NCBI GenBank assembly: GCA_951406725.2
Contig: OX597840.1
Span: 2,418,001 to 2,482,000 of the forward strand
DNA from: Octopus vulgaris
Lineage: Eukaryota
Direction: 5' to 3'
DNA: 64,000 nucleotides
Shown: piece after piece, positions 1-51,005 of the stretch
How the letters are laid out: every line of letters starts with the position of its first letter
Position numbering within the stretch: the first letter of the stretch is position 1
The notes under the pieces: generated by a model
Database searches by the model: none
Seen by the model: only the letters and a program-made list of their open reading frames with translations
What the model was told of the DNA's origin: nothing
Program-made: the position numbers and the translations under genes

Positions 1-98
1 TTTTGCTCAAGAACACAACGTGTCGCCCGGTCCAGGAATCGAAACCACAATCTTACGATCATGATGCTGACACCCTAACCACTAAAACACGCGCTTCT
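1..98 (-). mobile_element. tRNA-derived SINE head (family C), cut by window edge
   Basis: Reverse strand has A-box-like TAGTGGTTAGG and B-box GGTTTCGATTCC, followed by CTTGAGCAA as in the copies at 6552 and 60857. Confidence 0.7.
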
Positions 99-221
99 AC
101 ATATATATGTATACATACATACATACACACATACATACATACATAAACACACTCACAAACAAACACACACACACACACTTCTATTATATATACATTTGTA
201 CGAAATCTAGTATTTACCTCA

Positions 222-293
222 TTGCAGGGAGTGGTTTCGATCTTCGGACTTTAAGGTTATAAGCCGAGCACCCACCCTCCCACCGCTTCGCTG
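222..293 (-). pseudogene. degenerate initiator tRNA-Met-like sequence
   Basis: Minus strand GTGCTCGGCTTATAACCTTAAAGTCCGAAGATCGAAACCACTCCCTGCAA resembles eukaryotic tRNA-iMet, including the initiator-type T loop GATCGAAACC; anticodon reads TAT and stems are imperfect. Confidence 0.6.
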
Positions 294-932
294 TATTCCA
301 CGAGGAATTTACACAAATACATAAAGTAAGTATTATTCCTTACATTGTCCGTTCTCGGTTACATCACTTCCATTACATCATCTATCATATGCTATTTATT
401 TATTTATTTATTAGTTATGTACTTCTTTGCGTTGAACTGTTTCAAATGTACAAAACATGGTAACTACGCAATCCCTGTTGCGGCACTGAGACGTTAATTT
501 ACTTATTGAACGGCGACATTTCACTTTAACCGATATTCCGAGAGTCACATTTGATAAAGCACATGCATAAATCATCTAAGCGTTGCAAAGTCTTCTGGGT
601 GTCTCTTCATTTACCGTTTGCAGATCAGCCAGAAAGAAATCAATTCTACTAATACTTCTCTAGCGCAGCATAGCAAACGAGCTAGACGAGATTCCTAACG
701 GCACAACTGTCGCGAAATGCTACAGTCATTAGATATGTTGCATAGAATCTCTCCCGATTGTTATGAATTACTATGCTCTGATTTCAAACCCTACCGTGGC
801 CAACACTACTTTTTTATTTTTATCTATTAAGATCCCACCCGTTCACAATTTTTCAAATTTGCATATTCAGTCTTTAATTTTCATTTTCTCAATTTTACGT
901 TTTTGCTTAGCTTCCCCTGATTTATTCACATA

Positions 933-1099
933 GGAGCAGGAGTGGATGTGTGGTAAGTAGCTTGCTTACCAACCACATGGTTTCGGGTTCAGTCCCACTG
1001 CGTGGCACCTTGGGCAAGTGTCTTCTACTATAGCCTCGGGCAGACCAAAGCCTTGTGAGTGGGTTTTGTAGAAGGTAACTGAAAGAAGCCCGTCCTTTA

Positions 1100-1140
<41 letters not shown>

Positions 1141-1375
1141 ATGTGTGCGTGTATGTTTGTGTGTCTGTGTTTGTCCCCCTAGCATTGCTTGACAACCGAA
1201 GCTGGTGGGTTTATGTCCCCGTCACTTAGCGGTTCGGCAAAAGAGACCGATAGAATAAGTACTAGGCTTACAAAGAATAAGTCCTGGGGTCGAGTTGCTC
1301 GACTAAAGACGGTGCTCCAGCATGGCCGCAGTCAACTGACTGAAACAAGTAAAAGAGTAAAAGAGTGAAAGAGTA
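933..1375 (+). mobile_element. tRNA-derived SINE family A (internal TA/TG microsatellite, AAAAGAGT tail)
   Basis: A/B boxes GTGTGGTAAG...GGTTCAGTCCC; more than 10 near-identical copies in the window. Confidence 0.9.
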
Positions 1376-2309
1376 TACAGTAATGCCTCACTATACGAGT
1401 TCATTTCCTACTGGAGACCTCTCGTAAAGCGAAAACTCGTAAAATAGAGCAATATTTTTCCATTGTAGCAGTGTTATAAATCGTAATTCGTTCCCAGAAT
1501 AACATTTTGCCTATAAGTTTTATAATACTCGTAAATAAATGGCAATAATAGAATGTAAGGAAAACATGAGTAGAATGTAAAGGATATTTAATGTAAAGTA
1601 AAAAGAATATATATAATAAAAAATATTATTATTATTATTATCGTTTTCTGAATCACTTTCTCTTACACTAGACTCACGCACACCATCACTTGTAGACGAG
1701 ATCGCCGATTCACAAGCACTCGTAGACGGACTTGAAGATTTCTTTTTAAAAAACAAATCAAGCTTTTGCTTAGAAGAAGCGTTCATTCCGTCGCTATATG
1801 CAGTTGTGTAGAATTCGTCAGAACCAATGTTTCCACATGTTGTGACGTTGCCACGCACACAACATGGCTTTATATCCTTTTTATATTTATTATAAAATAA
1901 AATTCGTATACCCGGGGTATCGTAAATCGGGTTCTTGGAAAGTGATGTATTACTGTACAGTACTTTACTCTCTTCTTTCACCTTCCCAAACGCTTCTACT
2001 AACGGAGTTACCCCCTTTTGTTTCTCTATACAGGTCCATAACTACGTTACCTGAAACACACCAGCAAATCATCCTTTCAGGTTCGCTAAAAATATAAGCT
2101 AATTCCGAGTGATGAACTGACGAAATTATCCAGGATGTCAAACTCGATGCCTTTACGTACAAAATTCCCCTCGGGATCGAAAAGAAAAAGCCCAATGCTA
2201 GGTGATAGGTTGAGGGAACACAAAAGACGTTGAAATGGGCGCCTTTTCATTTGGAATTCAAATTCTGCCATGACTTACTGGTGTGTTAGCTTTAATCTGT
2301 TGGTCAATT

Positions 2310-2778
2310 TAACACCACCAGCTGGTACGGTGTGCCGAAGAGTTCCTGGCTTAGGGTAAAAGAAAATACAGGAGGATTAGTTAACTGTGATATTATTCAA
2401 TATATTCCCCTCTCAGATTCATACACTCAGTGCAGCAGTCCTTCAGTTTTTCTAAGTCCTGTGAAAGAACACGGAATGCTGGGCCTCCAACCAGGTTTTT
2501 ATGTTCCCCTTAAAGCCAGGAGCGGTTCCACACTCTCTCGTACGCATCGTTAGTACGCTCCCTTTTGTTATAACAGTCCTGGCCAGATCACTGGCATACA
2601 GATCACTTCTCTTTACACCCACTCTTCTCAAAAGTCTTTAAAGGATCAAGGAACACACCATTTATGTTCCTGACAAAACTATCTCACCCCACCTCAGATA
2701 AAACATCCAGCGTTCTGATAAACATATTTTGAGATAAAAATAACAATGGAAACCTACGCTATACACACCCCGCCACTA
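2310..2778 (-). mobile_element. probable solo LTR
   Basis: 469-bp non-coding, higher-GC unit flanked by AATT at 2306-2309 and 2779-2782; TATA-like CATAAAAA and AATAAT on the minus strand; termini are not TG..CA. Confidence 0.45.
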
Positions 2779-3385
2779 AATTTTCAAATTGTTTGGATAA
2801 GATCACTCAGGTACTCTTATAAAATTTTACTTGTCTTCGAAAAAAAAATGGCAACGTGAAAACACTATGGAAGTTTAGCAGACAGAGAGAGAAAAAGCAC
2901 CAGATAGCAGAGAATAAGACAGACACAAGGCTTCCATAACAATACTGAACTAATTAACGACAAAGTGGTACCAACTGATTACAATGTTTTGCAAAAGTTA
3001 GCTGGAAAGCTAAAGAATTTACATCGAACTGTCTGTAATGCTAAAAATATTTTGGCAGTTAAAGAATTTGTCCATCATAGCATTTGTAATTGACACAAAT
3101 GGAATCGTTAGAATGGTTCGTACACAACCGTTTATGTGTAAACACGTTAATGGAGAGATTAGTTACTGGAGACGCCATGCCGTCTTTATAGAGGAAACAA
3201 CGGATTAGTGAGTGTGTGGTCATAGTTTAGATAACAATTAACTTATGGGATGGTCATGTTTGGAATTCGCTTTCCTAGAGAGGTACTGGATCGGGGTTGA
3301 TATGATGCTAAATAATAAAGAATACGTTCCAGAAAACAAAAATGGTAATGTGATTTGTTTATATTTTTATGGTATTCTGATGTGG

Positions 3386-3822
3386 AGTGCTGGTAGAATT
3401 GTTAGCGCGCCGAATAAAATGTTTAGTAGTATATCTTCCAGACTTACGTTATCAGTTCAAATCCTGCCACGGTCAACTTGATATTTCATTCTCTTAGGGT
3501 CGGTGAAATAAATACCATATGAGCATTGGGATCTATATAGCCGACTGCACCCCTTCCCAAAATTTTCAGGCCTGGTACCCATAATAGAAAGGGCTGTTAA
3601 TATTATCCTTAAGGTGGCAAAGTCGTTAGCACGGTGCAGGAAATGTATATCGGTACATCTTACAGTTTCGCTTCCTGAGTTCAAATTCCAACGGGTCAAC
3701 TTTGCCTTCCGTCTTTTAAAGGACGATGAACTAAATACCGGTTGAATGAGTACTGGAATCGAGATAACAGACTGAAGCCTTCCCCAACATTTCAAGCCCT
3801 GGGCCTATGATATAAAGGGTTA
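3386..3822 (+). mobile_element. two old copies of SINE family B
   Basis: Degenerate GTTCAAATTCC...GTCAACTTTGCCTT...TAAATACC motifs. Confidence 0.65.
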
Positions 3823-4050
3823 TTACCTCCGCCAAGGAAGGAGGTTATGTTTTCATCAGTGTTGGTTTGTACGTCTGTCTGTGTGCAAAATAACTGAAAA
3901 AGTCTTAAATGTTATTTGATGAAACTTTCAGGAAAAGTTGATAATGACACAAGGAAGAGTTGATTAAATTTTGGTAGTGATCCAGGAATTTTTATGGATT
4001 CTTGAAGGATTTTTCATTTGTTATATTTACTTTACATGAAGTATTTCATT
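3821..4050 (+). mobile_element. Helentron/HINE-like non-autonomous element fragment
   Basis: Starts TTATTACCTCCGCCAAGGAAGGAGGTTATGTTTTC (short inverted repeat), followed by a GTCT microsatellite, as in DINE/HINE-like elements. Confidence 0.55.
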
Positions 4051-4054
4051 GTTA

Positions 4055-4705
4055 CGTTCTTTGATTATCACCCTGGTGAGTGGTGGTGGTAGTAGTAGTG
4101 GTGGTGATGGTTGTAATGATGCCGTTGGTAGTCGTAATGATGGTAGTGGTGGATGGGTGGTGGTTGTGGCGATGGTTATGGTTGTGGTCGTGGAGGTGGT
4201 GGTGGTGAGGTTTGGTGACTGTTGGCGGTAGAGGTGGCGTTGCTGGTGATGGTGATGGTTGCGGTGCGAATGTTGTGGTGGTGTTGCCGCTTGCTACTGT
4301 ATTCTTAATGGTGACGGTGATGGTGGTGGTGGCGGCAGTGGTCTTGTTTGTGGTGGTAGTAATGACGGCGGCGGTGGCCGTATTTGTGGTGGTGGTGGTG
4401 GTGGTGGTGGTTCCGATGATCGTAATGGTGGGTGATGATAATGATAATGATGATTGTGGTAGTGGTGGTAGTGACGATGATGGTGCAGCCGCAGCAGCAG
4501 CAGCGGCGGGGGCGGGAGCAGTAGCGGCGCCAAGCGATGTGGGTATTGGTGGTTTGTAATAACGAATGTATTAACACCGATACCACCACCATTTTAATAA
4601 TGGTGGTGGCATCGGTGCTAGTAATAATGGCAACGGTAGCAAGTGTCACGATAAAGATGGTGATGGAGATACAAGGTTTATAATTAAGTGGTTGTAGTGG
4701 TTGTT
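4055..4705. repeat. GGT/GAT/GCA trinucleotide mosaic
   Basis: Direct inspection. Confidence 0.9.
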
Positions 4706-5028
4706 TTGGCAGACGCACAAACGATAATTTTGCTGATTTGGTGTTAAAATACAAAACACTATGGTAATTGCCGTGAGGGGAAGACCACTCATATGGAACT
4801 ATGGTGCACAACAGCACTCGTGTTCTCATCACTGGCGGGCTTGAGCCGTCCGCTACAGTCACCGAAACTTTGAGACTCCCAGATTTTCGCCTTCCCTGGC
4901 CTTCTCAATGGCAGACGTCCGGCTAGACATATCAGACGATTACACCCGCAGCGATATAAAGAATCTATGTATCTGTTCAAGCACTGGTGTTACAAATAGC
5001 CAGTAGGCTTATTTAAAAGTATCCAGTT

Positions 5029-5175
5029 GCGCAGGAGTGGTTTGCTTACCAACCACATGGTTCCGAGTTCAATCCCAACTGCGTGGCACCTTGGGCAAGT
5101 GTCTTCTGCTATAGCCTCGAGCCGACCAATGCTTCTTGAGTAGATTTGGTAGAAGGAAACTGAAAGAAACCTGTC

Positions 5176-5223
<48 letters not shown>

Positions 5224-5465
5224 GTGTGTATATGTTTGAATGTCTGTGTTTGTCCGTTTGTCCCCTCTAGCATTGCTTGACAACCGATGCTGGTGTGTTT
5301 ACGTCCCCATCACTTAGCGGTTCGGCAAAAGAGACCGATAGAATAAGTACTAGGCTTACAAAGAATAAGTCCCGGGGTCGATTTGCTCGACTAAAGGCGA
5401 TGCTCCAGCATGGCCGCAGTCAAATGACTCAAACAAGTAAAAGAGTAAAAGAGAGTAAAAGAGTA
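5029..5465 (+). mobile_element. SINE family A
   Basis: Near-identical to 933-1375. Confidence 0.9.
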
Positions 5466-5497
5466 ATTGCGCCAGAAACAGTATTAATATAAAAAGG

Positions 5498-5917
5498 AAA
5501 TAGCGGTGGTGTGATTCCCTTCATGGGACTCTTATATTAAGTTGACAGTATACAACTGCTCTATCGTACCACCACTGCTTATATCTCTCTGAGATATTTA
5601 GAAATGTAATATTTCTATTTTTGTAATCAGTGGATTTATTTCACTGGAATTATTATATGTTTACGAGGCCTAGACAAGCATCTGCAGCTAGTAAGCCATG
5701 CAACTCCAGACTGATGACGAGAAAGAATCAGAAACTAGTCTCTGGGTGCAGGCTTAGCTGGGTGGGGGTGCTTGTCTCCCCTTGTAAACAGAAGTACACA
5801 GGAAATGTGTCAAGGCCGACGGGAAGCGTTGATGCTTCCTAGGGCTAAATAGCGGTGGTGTGATTCCCTTCATGGGACTGTCACATTAAGTTGACAGTAT
5901 ACAACTGCTCTATAGTA
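5498..5917 (+). mobile_element. retrozyme-like element: 349-nt unit plus ~67-bp terminal redundancy, carrying a type I hammerhead ribozyme
   Basis: Direct repeat 5498-5564 / 5847-5913 (3 mismatches), offset 349; non-coding; many hairpins; HHR at 5698-5750. Confidence 0.8.
5698..5750 (+). ncRNA. type I hammerhead ribozyme (minimal, palindromic stem III)
   Basis: Stem I CCAGA(5706-10)/TCTGG(5741-45); CTGATGA 5711-17; stem II CGA..TCA (C-A mismatch at its base); GAAA 5731-34; ACTAGT stem III; GTC triplet with predicted cleavage after 5740. Confidence 0.8.
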
Positions 5918-6551
5918 TTTGTGTCCCGCTTAAAATGGATGTTGTGTTAGAACACAGACGACTGGTGTCATTGACCTGAGAGCGCCTCTCCTATGGAATT
6001 ATGGTGCATAGAAGCACTCGTGTTCACATCCCTGGCGGGCGAGAACCGTCCGCTACGACCTTCGGGAAGCCATATGAAGTTATTTCAAATTTTCTTTTCC
6101 TTGTCAGTGGTAGACTTTCCGCAAGACATAGCCACCGATTACACCGTCAGAGATGCATAGAATCTCCGTGTTCATTCATACACTGGTGTCTCAGATACAG
6201 CCAGAAGCAGTATTTATGCAAAAGGATTATGTGTATGTCAGACTCAAAGTGGCTGTTTTTTTAGAACACAAAATACAACGTTTATTTATGATGTCTGGAA
6301 ATTTATATGGACTTGTGGTACATATAAATCGCCCCTGTTTACATCGCTGGCCAGCAAGAACCGTCCGCTACGGCCGCCGGAACAAGCAGATCACATGATT
6401 TCGACATTCATTGGCCTCGTCAGTGGCAGACGTCTGATTGGTATTACTGTCATGGGCGCTAGTAACAGTGCTGAATGTCGTGTGTCAACGGAGATTAAGA
6501 AGACAATGTGACGTAGTTGGAGGTTATGATAATAGTTTCAGTAGCAGAAGT

Positions 6552-6885
6552 AGGCAAATGGCTCAGTGGTTATAGCGTCGAGCTCACAATCATGTGGTAG
6601 TGAGTTGGATTCCTGGACCAGAGTTTGTGGTGTGTTCTTGAGCAAGATACTTTATTTCACGTTGCTCCAGTTCCCTCAGCCGTAGAAATGAATTGCAATG
6701 TCACTGGTGCCAAGCTGTATCGGCCCCTTTGCCTTTCTCTTGGATAACATCGGTGCTGTGGAGTGTGGAGACTGGTATGAATGGGTGACTGTTAGCCTTC
6801 CACAAACAATCTTGCCCTGACTTGTGCTTCGATGGGGAATTTTCTAGGTACAATCCTATGGTCATTCGTGATCGAAGGAGGTCTT
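6552..6885 (+). mobile_element. tRNA-derived SINE family C
   Basis: TGGCTCAGTGGTT A-box and B-box-like GTTGGATTCC; body matches 60857-61180. Confidence 0.8.
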
Positions 6886-6889
6886 TACT

Positions 6890-10330
<3,441 letters not shown>

Positions 10331-10924
10331 CGTTGCTATTCTGTCACTATCGCATGGTCAAAATCTGATGACCAAAAACAGTAAAGGATAAACGATGAAA
10401 TATTAGCCCAATACTCAAACACCCACCACCACTAATCACCCACCACTCAACTTATTGACCAATCAAAGACCCCAGGCTCACTCAACCACTACAATCGATT
10501 CCCGTTGCCAATGAATCTCCACTCTAACACAATACCTACCACCACACTACAGACCGAGTTACCTCTCAGACACTGCATCGCCACCAGCAATCCATTCAAC
10601 GTATTTACTACTCAACCACTAGAGTCTAACGTCAACTCTAATAATAACACCACTCAGCCCCCACTCTCACTCAGTCACCACTTCCTCTCACCATCAGTCT
10701 CAGTCAACCATTGCTCCTATTCAAACATCACTCCCACTCAACCATTACTCGCACTCAACCACCATTACCCTCACTGAAACATTATTATCACTCAAACATC
10801 ACCACTCTCTCTCAAACACCACTTCCATTCAACCACCATTCCCACTCAACATCCACTTTTATTCAACCACCACTTCCACTCAACCTCCACTTATACTCAA
10901 CTACCACCTCCATTCGACCACCAC

Positions 10925-11223
10925 TTCGGCGGAATTTGATGTCAAAACCTAAAGACAGACGAAATACCGCTAAACATTTCGCCCGGCATGCTAACGTTTC
11001 TTATTTCTTTACTACCCACAAGGGACTAAACATAGAGAGGACAAACAAGGACACACAAACAGATTAAGTCGATTACATCGACCCCAGTGCATAACAAGTA
11101 CTTAATTTATCGACCCCGAAAGTATGAAAGGCAAAGTCGACCTCAGCGGAATTCGATCTCAGAACGCAGCGGCAGACGAAATACCACAAAGCATTTCGTC
11201 CGGCTTGCTAACGTTTCTGCCAG
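10925..11223 (-). mobile_element. SINE family B, tandem copies
   Basis: Core GACCCCGAAAG.ATGAAAGGCAAAGTCGACC (Meta/MESC-like central domain, by recollection) plus a tRNA head. Confidence 0.85.
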
Positions 11224-11480
11224 TTGCATCATTGCCATATATTTTATGTTGCCCGAGGCTAGCCTGAAACTTGTACTAAAAAATACACGTCTGTGGAAAG
11301 TAGACGAACTTCTGTGTAAATTTTTAAAATTACAAAGTTATAACTTGATGTGTCTGAGGTTCGGATACTTATCTATCCTTGAAATACTGAATAACACACA
11401 GAATATTAAATTGGACGTGTAATCCAAAGTTGTGCCATTGTCATACTCTCTGTGTTGCACCGATTCTAGCGTGAATCTTG

Positions 11481-11630
11481 CTTCTGAGTTCAAATTCTGC
11501 CGAGGTCAACTTCGCCTTCCATCCTTTCGGGATCGATTAAGTAAGTACCAGTTACGCACTGGAGTCGATATAATCGACTTAAACCCTTTGTCTGTCTTTG
11601 TTTGTCCCCTTATGGGCAATAAAGAAATAA
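11481..11630 (+). mobile_element. SINE family B fragment
   Basis: GAGTTCAAATTCTGCCGAGGTC...AAAGAAATA. Confidence 0.8.
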
Positions 11631-12029
11631 GATTCTATCGAGGAACTGCTGCTGCTGCTGCTGCTGCAGTTCGTACTGTTCCTGTATGCATTCTTGATAT
11701 ACTGAGTAACACACAATTTAAAGAGATGTACGTTTAAGTCTAAAGTTGCATATTTGTGATACACTTTGTATTGCACTGATTCTAAGAATTGCATTCAAAG
11801 CTACACGTGTCTGCGGAAGGTTGGAAGCTCCGTGTAACTTGAAAAACGTACCACTTATCATACAACACGATACGTTCAAGATCTTGCCTAAGAATAATAT
11901 CAAGGATAGCACGGATAGATGTTTGTGTAATAAGCAACCACGTGCAGGTGAATTCAATGAACGGGTAATTCCTTTGATCAGGCTCGTCGAATCCGACGGA
12001 GAACCATCCATTATTGCTATTGTTCTTTT

Positions 12030-31261: not shown

Positions 31262-31839
31262 GACGAGCTGGCAGAAACGTTAGCACGCCGGGCGAAATGC
31301 TTTGTCGTATTTCGTCCGCCGCTGCGTACTAAGTTCAAATCCCCCCGAGGTCGACTTTGCCTTTCATCCTTTCGGGGTCGATAAATTAAGTACCAATTAC
31401 ACACTGGGGTCGGTGTAATCGACATAATCCATTGTCTGTCCTTGTTTGTCCTCTCTGTGTTTAGCCCCTTGTGGGTAGTAAAGAAATAGGTATTTCGCCT
31501 GCCGCTACGTTCTGAGTTCAAATTCCACCGAGGCCGACTTTGCTTTTCATCCTTTCGGGGTCGATAAATTAAGTACCAGTTACGCACAGGGATCGATGTA
31601 ATCGACTTAATCCGCTTGTCTGTCCTTGTTTGTCCCCTCTGTGTTTAGCCTCTTGTGGGTAGTAAATAAATAGGTATTTTGTCTGTCGTTACGTTCTGAT
31701 TTCAAATTCCGCAGAGGTCAACTTTGCCTTTCATCCTTTCCGGGTCGGTAAATTAAGTACCAGTTAACAACTTAATCTGTTTGTCTGTCCTTGTTTTTCC
31801 CTTCTATGTTTAGCCCCATGTTGACGGTAAAGAAATAAG
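31262..31839 (+). mobile_element. SINE family B trimer
   Basis: One headed copy plus two headless units, period ~184 bp. Confidence 0.9.
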
Positions 31840-50109: not shown

Positions 50110-51005
50110 TTATTTCTTTACTGCCCATAAGTGGCTACACACAGAGGGGACAAACAAGGACAGACAAACGGATTAAGTCGATTACATCGACCTCAGTGTG
50201 CAACTGGTACTTAATTTATCGATCCCGAAAGGATGAAAGCCAAAGTCGACTTCGGTTGAATTTGAACTCAGAACGCAACGGGAGACGAAATATCTATTTC
50301 TTTACTACCCACAAGGGGCAAAACACAGAGAGGACAAACAAGGACAGACAAAGGGACTAAGTCGATTACATCGACCCCAGTGCGTAAATGGTACTTAATT
50401 TATCGACCCCGAAAGGATGAAAGGCATAGTCGACCTCAGTGGAATTTGAACGCAGAACGTAACGACAGACGGAATACCGCTAAGCATTTCGCCCGGCGTG
50501 CTAACGTTTCTGCCAGCTCACCGCCTTGGTTCTGTCATATCTTTACCTCAACCACAACACCGACAACAAGAACAAGAACAAGGACGACAGCAACAAAAAC
50601 AATGATTCTTCCAACTATAGGCAGAACTCCTGATATAGAAAAGCTAGTCGATTACACCAACCCCTATTTTTAACTGGTATGTACTTTATCGTTCTCGAAC
50701 GGGATGAGGGCAAAGTCTATCTCGGCAAAATTTGAACTCAGATCGTAAAGACGGGCCAAATGTCGCTAAACATTTTGTCCAGCGTGCTATAACGATTCTG
50801 CTTGCTCGCTGCCTTAAAACCAACAATAATAGTTTCATATTTTGACAAAAGGCCAGAAATTTCCATTTAGGGGCTAAATCAATTTCATTGACCCCAGAGT
50901 TCGATTGGTACTTATTTTATCGGTCCCGAACGGATGAACAACAAAGTCGACCGGCAAAGAACCGCTAAGCTTTTTGTCCAACGTGTGAAGGATTCACGCC
51001 CCCTT
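50110..51005 (-). mobile_element. SINE family B dimer plus two older copies
   Basis: Match to family B. Confidence 0.85.

Follow-up and report, generated by a model that had tools for sequence, protein, structure and literature searches.

Decayed copies of an old 348-bp hammerhead repeat family, very probably a non-LTR retrozyme, in the genome of Octopus vulgaris

The closest described relatives of the repeat family reported here are the metazoan non-LTR retrozymes, with repeats of 350-390 bp in mussel and 330/350 bp in the axolotl (Cervera and de la Pena 2020, PMC7229834). As far as the sections of that study considered here describe them, these elements and the Octopus vulgaris family have in common a non-coding monomer of about 350 bp, a GC content of 43%, one type I hammerhead each, dispersed copies, short tandems, and several families per genome. 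The octopus family differs in its apparently old and decayed state, in consisting mostly of 1-1.3-mers known here from DNA copies, and in having many copies with a U3-A8 core pair and a longer, 10-nt stem III palindrome. The same exchange of the C3-G8 pair is found in the Cercyon Penelope elements (PLEs) of Schistosoma (PMC4209133) and in natural U3-A8 hammerheads, which the relevant part of PMC3088659 describes as active in vitro. The minimal hammerheads of Cercyon further resemble those of the octopus family in having a palindromic stem III for dimers and an association with PLEs; unlike in Cercyon, the octopus exchange is found in a canonical, full-size hammerhead within an ORF-less repeat, and both states of the pair occur in one family. 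The octopus motif follows the canonical type I layout for metazoans given in PMC4209133, where, in the portion of the paper used here, a palindromic stem III is said to permit dimers. Finally, GIY-YIG PLEs (PMC8557442; bioRxiv 10.64898/2026.07.22.740005), to the extent covered by the excerpts at hand, share with the octopus family the 5′ truncation, partial tandems, inverted arm, and AT-rich targets, whereas the octopus family is ORF-less and dissimilar to the terminal repeat of the single PLE family compared. Publications already describe the element class, the U3-A8 core variant, and the Penelope link. A literature search found no paper on cephalopod retrozymes, and supplements or repeat libraries may list the family; the main text of PMC13282606 mentions neither ribozymes nor retrozymes, and PMC7229834 does not mention cephalopods.

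The window is a stretch of 64,000 nucleotides of the O. vulgaris genome (contig OX597840.1), of which the interval 4710-6438 contains three related units (Table 1). In itself, this is ordinary repeat DNA that has decayed. We consider it very probable that its units are decayed copies of an old, non-coding 348-bp family with a type I hammerhead, that is, a non-LTR retrozyme that is predicted to have self-cleaved and was likely inserted by Penelope machinery. The original prediction had described the units as three repeats of about 315 bp with a common anchor at 4846, 6046, and 6361. This anchor has no other occurrence in the window, the units are pairwise 65-72% identical, and their alignment scores (241, 137, and 146) exceed the maxima of 200 mononucleotide shuffles each (71, 55, and 50). 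The units themselves were thus borne out, but not their length, as iterative profile building from the retrieved loci yielded a monomer period of 348 bp, and the 315-bp spacing results from the absence of monomer positions 14-46 at the junction of units 3 and 2.

Table 1. Features of the old-family locus (positions in the window; monomer positions refer to the 348-bp period)
Feature	Position	Strand	Description
Unit 3	6199..6438	-	5′-truncated old 348-bp monomer, positions about 126-348 + 1-13
Unit 3 hammerhead	6378..6436	-	intact core (C3-G8); cleavage predicted between 6389 and 6388
Unit 2	5913..6198	-	monomer 47-336; broken at about 336 by the young element
Unit 2 hammerhead	6064..6120	-	decayed: CUGACAA, C3/A8 mismatch, stem II lost
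Young 349-nt-monomer element	5498..5912	+	1.2 monomers; inside unit 2 at an AT-rich site
Unit 2 remainder and unit 1 start	5464..5497	-	monomer about 337-348 + 1-22; displaced
SINE-like repeat	5036..5465	+	repeated many times in the window; interrupts the old array
Unit 1	4710..5035	-	monomer about 12-311, clear to 4735
Unit 1 hammerhead	4863..4921	-	decayed: UUGAGAA, U3-A8 type, G12 lost, stem I 3/6

The spacing of 1,200 bp between units 1 and 2 corresponds to one monomer plus two insertions, which are those expected from the original prediction, a SINE and a 349-nt element. The first, which we take to be a SINE, is bordered by about 12 bp of degenerate duplicated sequence (5025-5036 and 5465-5477), and the second, referred to below as the young element, has no clear target duplication. 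Between them lies the displaced remnant with the end of unit 2 and the start of unit 1, indicating that these two units were once continuous. Beyond 4735, unit 1 extends as a weakly aligned tail toward the usual 3′ end of the family, and a displaced host remnant was not detected to the right of unit 3 (6440-6620). The array was absent among the 150 of 169 Tandem Repeats Finder matches listed. Elsewhere in the window, 184-bp SINE-like tandem repeats are present at 31307-31766 and 50111-50476 (2.5 and 2.0 copies), as is a degenerate 17-bp minisatellite at 10672-10928.

The idea of one homogeneous tandem array had to be given up. Units 1 and 2 have 5-6 rare variants in common (other copies about 1 on average, maximum 4-6), whereas unit 3 lacks all four of the unit 1-2 rare variants that fall in its overlap and is no closer to these two units than to the remaining copies. 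Since these variants join units 1 and 2 but are absent from unit 3, the array is, judged by its sequence, probably composed of a dimer (units 2 and 1) and a third copy derived from another template. A plain deletion within a trimer is less likely.

Each unit has a minus-strand hammerhead-like motif at equal register, as predicted, although none of the three is intact (the model used to locate them was built from rows including the window units themselves). The type I core is present in unit 3 only; the cores of units 1 and 2 are broken. Unit 3 had been singled out as the best preserved, which is correct for the CUGANGA core, kept nowhere else in the array, but its stems are incomplete (stem I 4/6, stem II 3/4, stem III 4/4 pairs), and the hammerhead is probably inactive. 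Its stem I had been drawn from the CGGCGGCCGT block, which misplaces the helix: the 6 bases before the core pair with the 6 bases directly after AUC. None of the window motifs folded better than shuffles (z +1.8, +0.7, and +0.4), and an Rfam search over window positions 1-12000 at E<=10 found no hammerhead, including in the young element, which has its own hammerhead-like motif at about 5706-5745.

Evidence for the nature of the units comes from the family to which they belong. With units 2-3 as query, at least 43 matches were found on many of the 227 contigs of the 2.8 Gb genome (40 of 155 candidates scored). Four old-family loci, including a weak one, were found in forty unselected 10-kb stretches taken at round coordinates; scaled to the genome, this corresponds to about 28,000 loci (95% range 7,600-72,000). 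The family displays several features of non-LTR retrozymes, namely a 348-bp non-coding monomer (within the range of 170-400 bp), one hammerhead, a tandem dimer, and dispersed copies. Additional tandem neighbours occur at two loci (L003 and L127), and multimers longer than 600 bp are rare (3/154 main matches), a number partly limited by locus size. Long multimers are typical of retrozymes. Non-CpG divergence from the majority has a family median of about 0.20 (85 pattern-selected copies) and reaches 0.29-0.31 in the window units, compared with 0.04 in the young insert, and the family is probably extinct. The best BLAST match between the old and the young family covers 26 nt (E 0.066). Together with the divergences of 0.20 and 0.04, this agrees with the original view of a second, older hammerhead family unrelated to the 349-nt element.

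Folded as a circle, the majority monomer is branched and 60% paired (z -3.9, 60 shuffles), although the majority restores CpG and may overstate the pairing; the young-family majority reaches z -9.0 (60 shuffles), and one of four well-preserved old-family copies folds clearly better than its own shuffles. In contigs of four same-label runs, which we guess to be RNA, the old units are covered at 80% likeness only in short pieces near 6370-6439. A contig piece near 6370-6439 was considered as a living descendant and rejected, as it traces to a decayed old copy (L281). The young element is densely covered by contigs of 4/4 of the same-label runs, a depth that cannot rank expression. Open frames matching BTB/POZ and carboxylesterase lie less than 1.5 kb from old copies (L255:553-996 and L069:2427-2858), suggesting that some copies are probably intronic. 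Members at L020:490-756 and L165:9545-9876 are more diverged and have C3-G8 together with still different stem II sequences, which suggests further subfamilies.

After duplicate loci and overlapping antisense matches had been dropped, 264 profile matches remained, 175 of which span the motif. In the family motif, stem I has 6 bp and is extended, past an internal loop, by 4 additional pairs; stem II has 4 bp and is closed by a purine-rich loop of 6 nt; GAAA follows, then stem III, a palindrome of 10 nt, and the cleavage triplet AUC. The core letters are each kept in 69-78 of 77-79 rows, so that the type I hammerhead core is present in the family, with C3U4G5A6NG8A9 or its U3-A8 variant, G12A13A14, the A15.1-U16.1 pair, and H17. 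Both core and stems are kept in 28 of the 175 copies. In 76 of the 175 rows, 85.5% of the cells are paired, compared with 80.2% in shuffles (0/500 reach this value) and 22-43% in slid controls. Covariation in these rows also lies above 500/500 shuffles and all slid controls, supporting three helices with an open-ended stem I. Among 50,021 column pairs ranked by corrected mutual information, the stem II pair takes 8th place and the outer pair of stem I takes 30th. Two subfamilies whose majorities are 80% identical show differences at 7 of the 19 pairs, comprising five two-sided compensatory changes and two G-U wobbles, with no broken pair; the case for a hammerhead rests on this preservation of the pair in every subfamily change at paired positions. 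The covariation represents few subfamily-level events, and many unpaired column pairs also covary via the subfamily structure. The RNAalifold structure contained no more than 3 pairs, all in stem II, and a tree-based test found just 1-3 independent pairs on supported branches. In Rfam, Hammerhead_HH9 matches one of four sources, the copy at L069 (E 5e-4), with 29.9 bits against a gathering threshold of 52; neither this copy nor anything in window positions 1-12000 reached the curated hammerhead threshold. The near-identical tandem motifs of locus L159 (see below) were also missed, indicating that the Rfam models are insensitive here. A consensus devoid of the hammerhead core, named in the original prediction as the outcome that would count against it, was not what we found, as the core and covarying stems are both present.

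Variability is also found at the catalytic pair 3-8. Among the 175 copies, this pair is U-A in 89, C-G in 41, C-A in 24, and U-G in 7 (Fisher p 2e-14), with U-A or C-G in 130 copies, and the association is also present in the 79 rows not chosen by pattern (p 1.6e-8). CUGANGA, previously taken as the family core, is the core of one subfamily only. A pattern with the seven core letters left free gave 111 matches, and U3-A8 was found in 73 of the 100 listed (hand count), while a C3-G8 copy used as query retrieved a subfamily with C3-G8 in 30/35 copies and a different stem II. Eight unselected rows have U-A (n = 3), C-G (n = 2), C-A (n = 1), or a gap (n = 2) at this pair. As the other samples are biased by their queries, the proportions of core types do not represent genome frequencies.

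The C3/A8 mismatch is found in 24 copies, compared with about 15 expected from background rates according to a rough estimate. An exact pattern gave 17 matches (12 C3/A8, 5 C3-G8), none of which has the mirror form of CpG decay, and the C3/A8 copies are scattered on the tree. A form with C7 changed to T is present at L282. It is possible that the C3/A8 form was a propagating intermediate. A more elaborate scenario, to which we give little credence, has a C3-G8 lineage passing into U3-A8 via self-propagating C3/A8 copies, possibly aided by dimer partners with an intact core, and a last wave being driven by a PLE with its own U3-A8 minimal hammerhead that switched templates once. The core of four further copies (L009, L017, L043, and L096) reads U3-C4 (UCGACAA), and these copies may form a small subfamily whose core has undergone a second change.

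The position of the young element inside unit 2 raises the question of whether the two families are specifically associated. The young family is large (3,098 candidates), and many of its loci carry inverted 5′ arms. Not one of the 27 young loci lies inside an old copy, and a query spanning the junction had no other match across it (0/42; 40 of 1,270 candidates scored). Nested cases amount to 2 of 122 old-bearing loci, one of which is the window, and 0 of 28 further loci. The second case (L009:847-1480) is a two-armed, older relative of the young family (72% alike) inside an old copy, flanked by a target duplication of 13 bp, and its insertion point lies no more than 2 bases from the window's site on the old monomer. 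In addition, an old copy is found within 1.5 kb of 3/27 young loci, compared with 0.78 expected (P 0.045). These two observations would fit a true host-parasite relation of ribozyme elements in which the young family specifically targets one old-family site. Such a relation is nevertheless unlikely given the rarity of nested and chimeric loci, and because the other 3′ flanks of the young family are simply AT-rich, like the window site, and the old family is common. The original prediction had left the choice between a shared preference and chance; we favour chance combined with a preference for AT-rich targets, and a weak insertion hotspot in the old monomer is possible. A third hammerhead family forms an array at L159:2167-4777 (G000:C1, about 20.002-20.005 Mb), with seven near-identical, intact-looking C3-G8 motifs in a two-armed tandem of 353-359-bp units that is distantly like the young family and looks young. 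A diverged young-family relative at L164:7386-8340 has a hammerhead-like motif with a U3-A8 core, and the same stretch also contains a PLE 3′ repeat fragment at 4933-5111.

The ends of the old copies resemble those left by PLEs. The 3′ ends fall within monomer positions 21-40 in 52/154 copies, with more just upstream, the 5′ ends are spread, and 35/157 loci have an adjacent inverted arm, every one joined 5′ to 5′. A preferred 3′ end, 5′ truncation, and an inverted 5′-truncated arm are described for PLE insertions in the pertinent part of PMC8557442, and this footprint of Penelope mobilisation, including variable 5′ truncation, is present in the old family. Moreover, one old copy (L081) is joined head-to-head at its 5′ end with 514 bp from the 3′ end of a GIY-YIG element, with 7 bases between them, and the missing part of neither partner was found on the far side. 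The ages of the partners agree, as the PLE fragment shares 90.5% identity with the majority of its family (9.5% diverged) and the old copy, which is among the youngest of its family, is 0.10 diverged. The simplest reading is a single insertion with a template switch, and a deletion joining two neighbours is possible. This chimera is one case among 157 loci, and L081 is the sole old-family locus matched by pieces of the PLE family. This PLE family, of at least 150 copies, carries a minimal hammerhead-like motif of its own, whose core is U3-A8 in 15/25 copies. Its members (L081:814-1320 and L257-L280), with a C-terminal GIY-YIG, carry this motif in the 3′ repeat, followed by a splice-donor-like GTAAGT.

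The same geometry would be expected if the unit were the solo pseudo-LTR of an old autonomous PLE left after heavy 5′ truncation and not an independent retrozyme. PLE terminal repeats bear type I hammerheads, U3-A8 included, in the sections of PMC4209133 that treat them, and vertebrate retrozymes are related to pLTRs according to the available part of bioRxiv 10.64898/2026.07.22.740005. We consider this explanation very unlikely because the copies longer than one monomer (57/154) continue into the previous monomer and never into an ORF, and because the helices of the motif (6 bp, and 4 bp with the internal loop) are canonical, unlike those of the minimal PLE type. An ORF with RT and GIY-YIG between repeats, as an autonomous PLE would have, was not found in the old family in a scan of 71 of the 154 flanking ORFs, a single one of which has a PLE domain (GIY-YIG, Pfam E 3.7e-4), in inverted orientation. 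The old monomer also has no similarity at E<1 to the terminal repeat of the PLE family at L081.

We retain the reading of the units as copies of a retrozyme that was likely mobilised by Penelope machinery, a route backed in print by co-occurrence and homology in the parts of PMC7229834, bioRxiv 10.64898/2026.07.22.740005, and PMC4209133 consulted. Transcripts longer than one unit would have been cut after AUC at two successive hammerheads, which probably paired as a dimer via the palindromic stem III, and the resulting 348-nt monomer may have been circularised, in line with the known retrozyme model. A Penelope reverse transcriptase with a GIY-YIG endonuclease could then have primed at a DNA break in an AT-rich site and copied round the circle, which would produce 5′-truncated, often two-armed insertions of about 1-1.3 monomers. 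Selection would have acted on cleavage at the source copies, with neutral decay after insertion. The locus in the window would have originated as the dimer of units 2 and 1 and the third copy, and later received the SINE and the much younger, unrelated retrozyme.

That the hammerhead likeness arose by chance in an ordinary old or decayed protein-coding repeat is extremely improbable: although the window motifs by themselves, damaged, no better than shuffles, and missed by Rfam, could be taken this way, and 315 is divisible by three, the core letters are kept across the family, all subfamily changes at paired positions keep the pair, stops occur in every frame, deletions shift the frame, and the true period is 348. 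A protein-coding repeat of 105 codons is ruled out by this period, the stops (8-19 in each of the six frames of the dimer), and the lack of a codon signal. There are 239 deletions of one base, 85 of two, and 51 of three, and a 116-aa open frame across units 2-3 has no Pfam match. The codon-position bias that the original prediction had named as adverse evidence was likewise not observed, with substitution rates of 0.17, 0.21, and 0.20.

This analysis adds an old, high-copy retrozyme family to the genome of Octopus vulgaris. The fusion at L081 is a physical trace that ties a retrozyme to a particular Penelope family. Searches requiring CUGANGA would miss a large share of the old family. In its preserved subfamilies, the stepwise compensatory evolution of a hammerhead can be followed, also at the catalytic 3-8 pair, and can be tested with natural copies.
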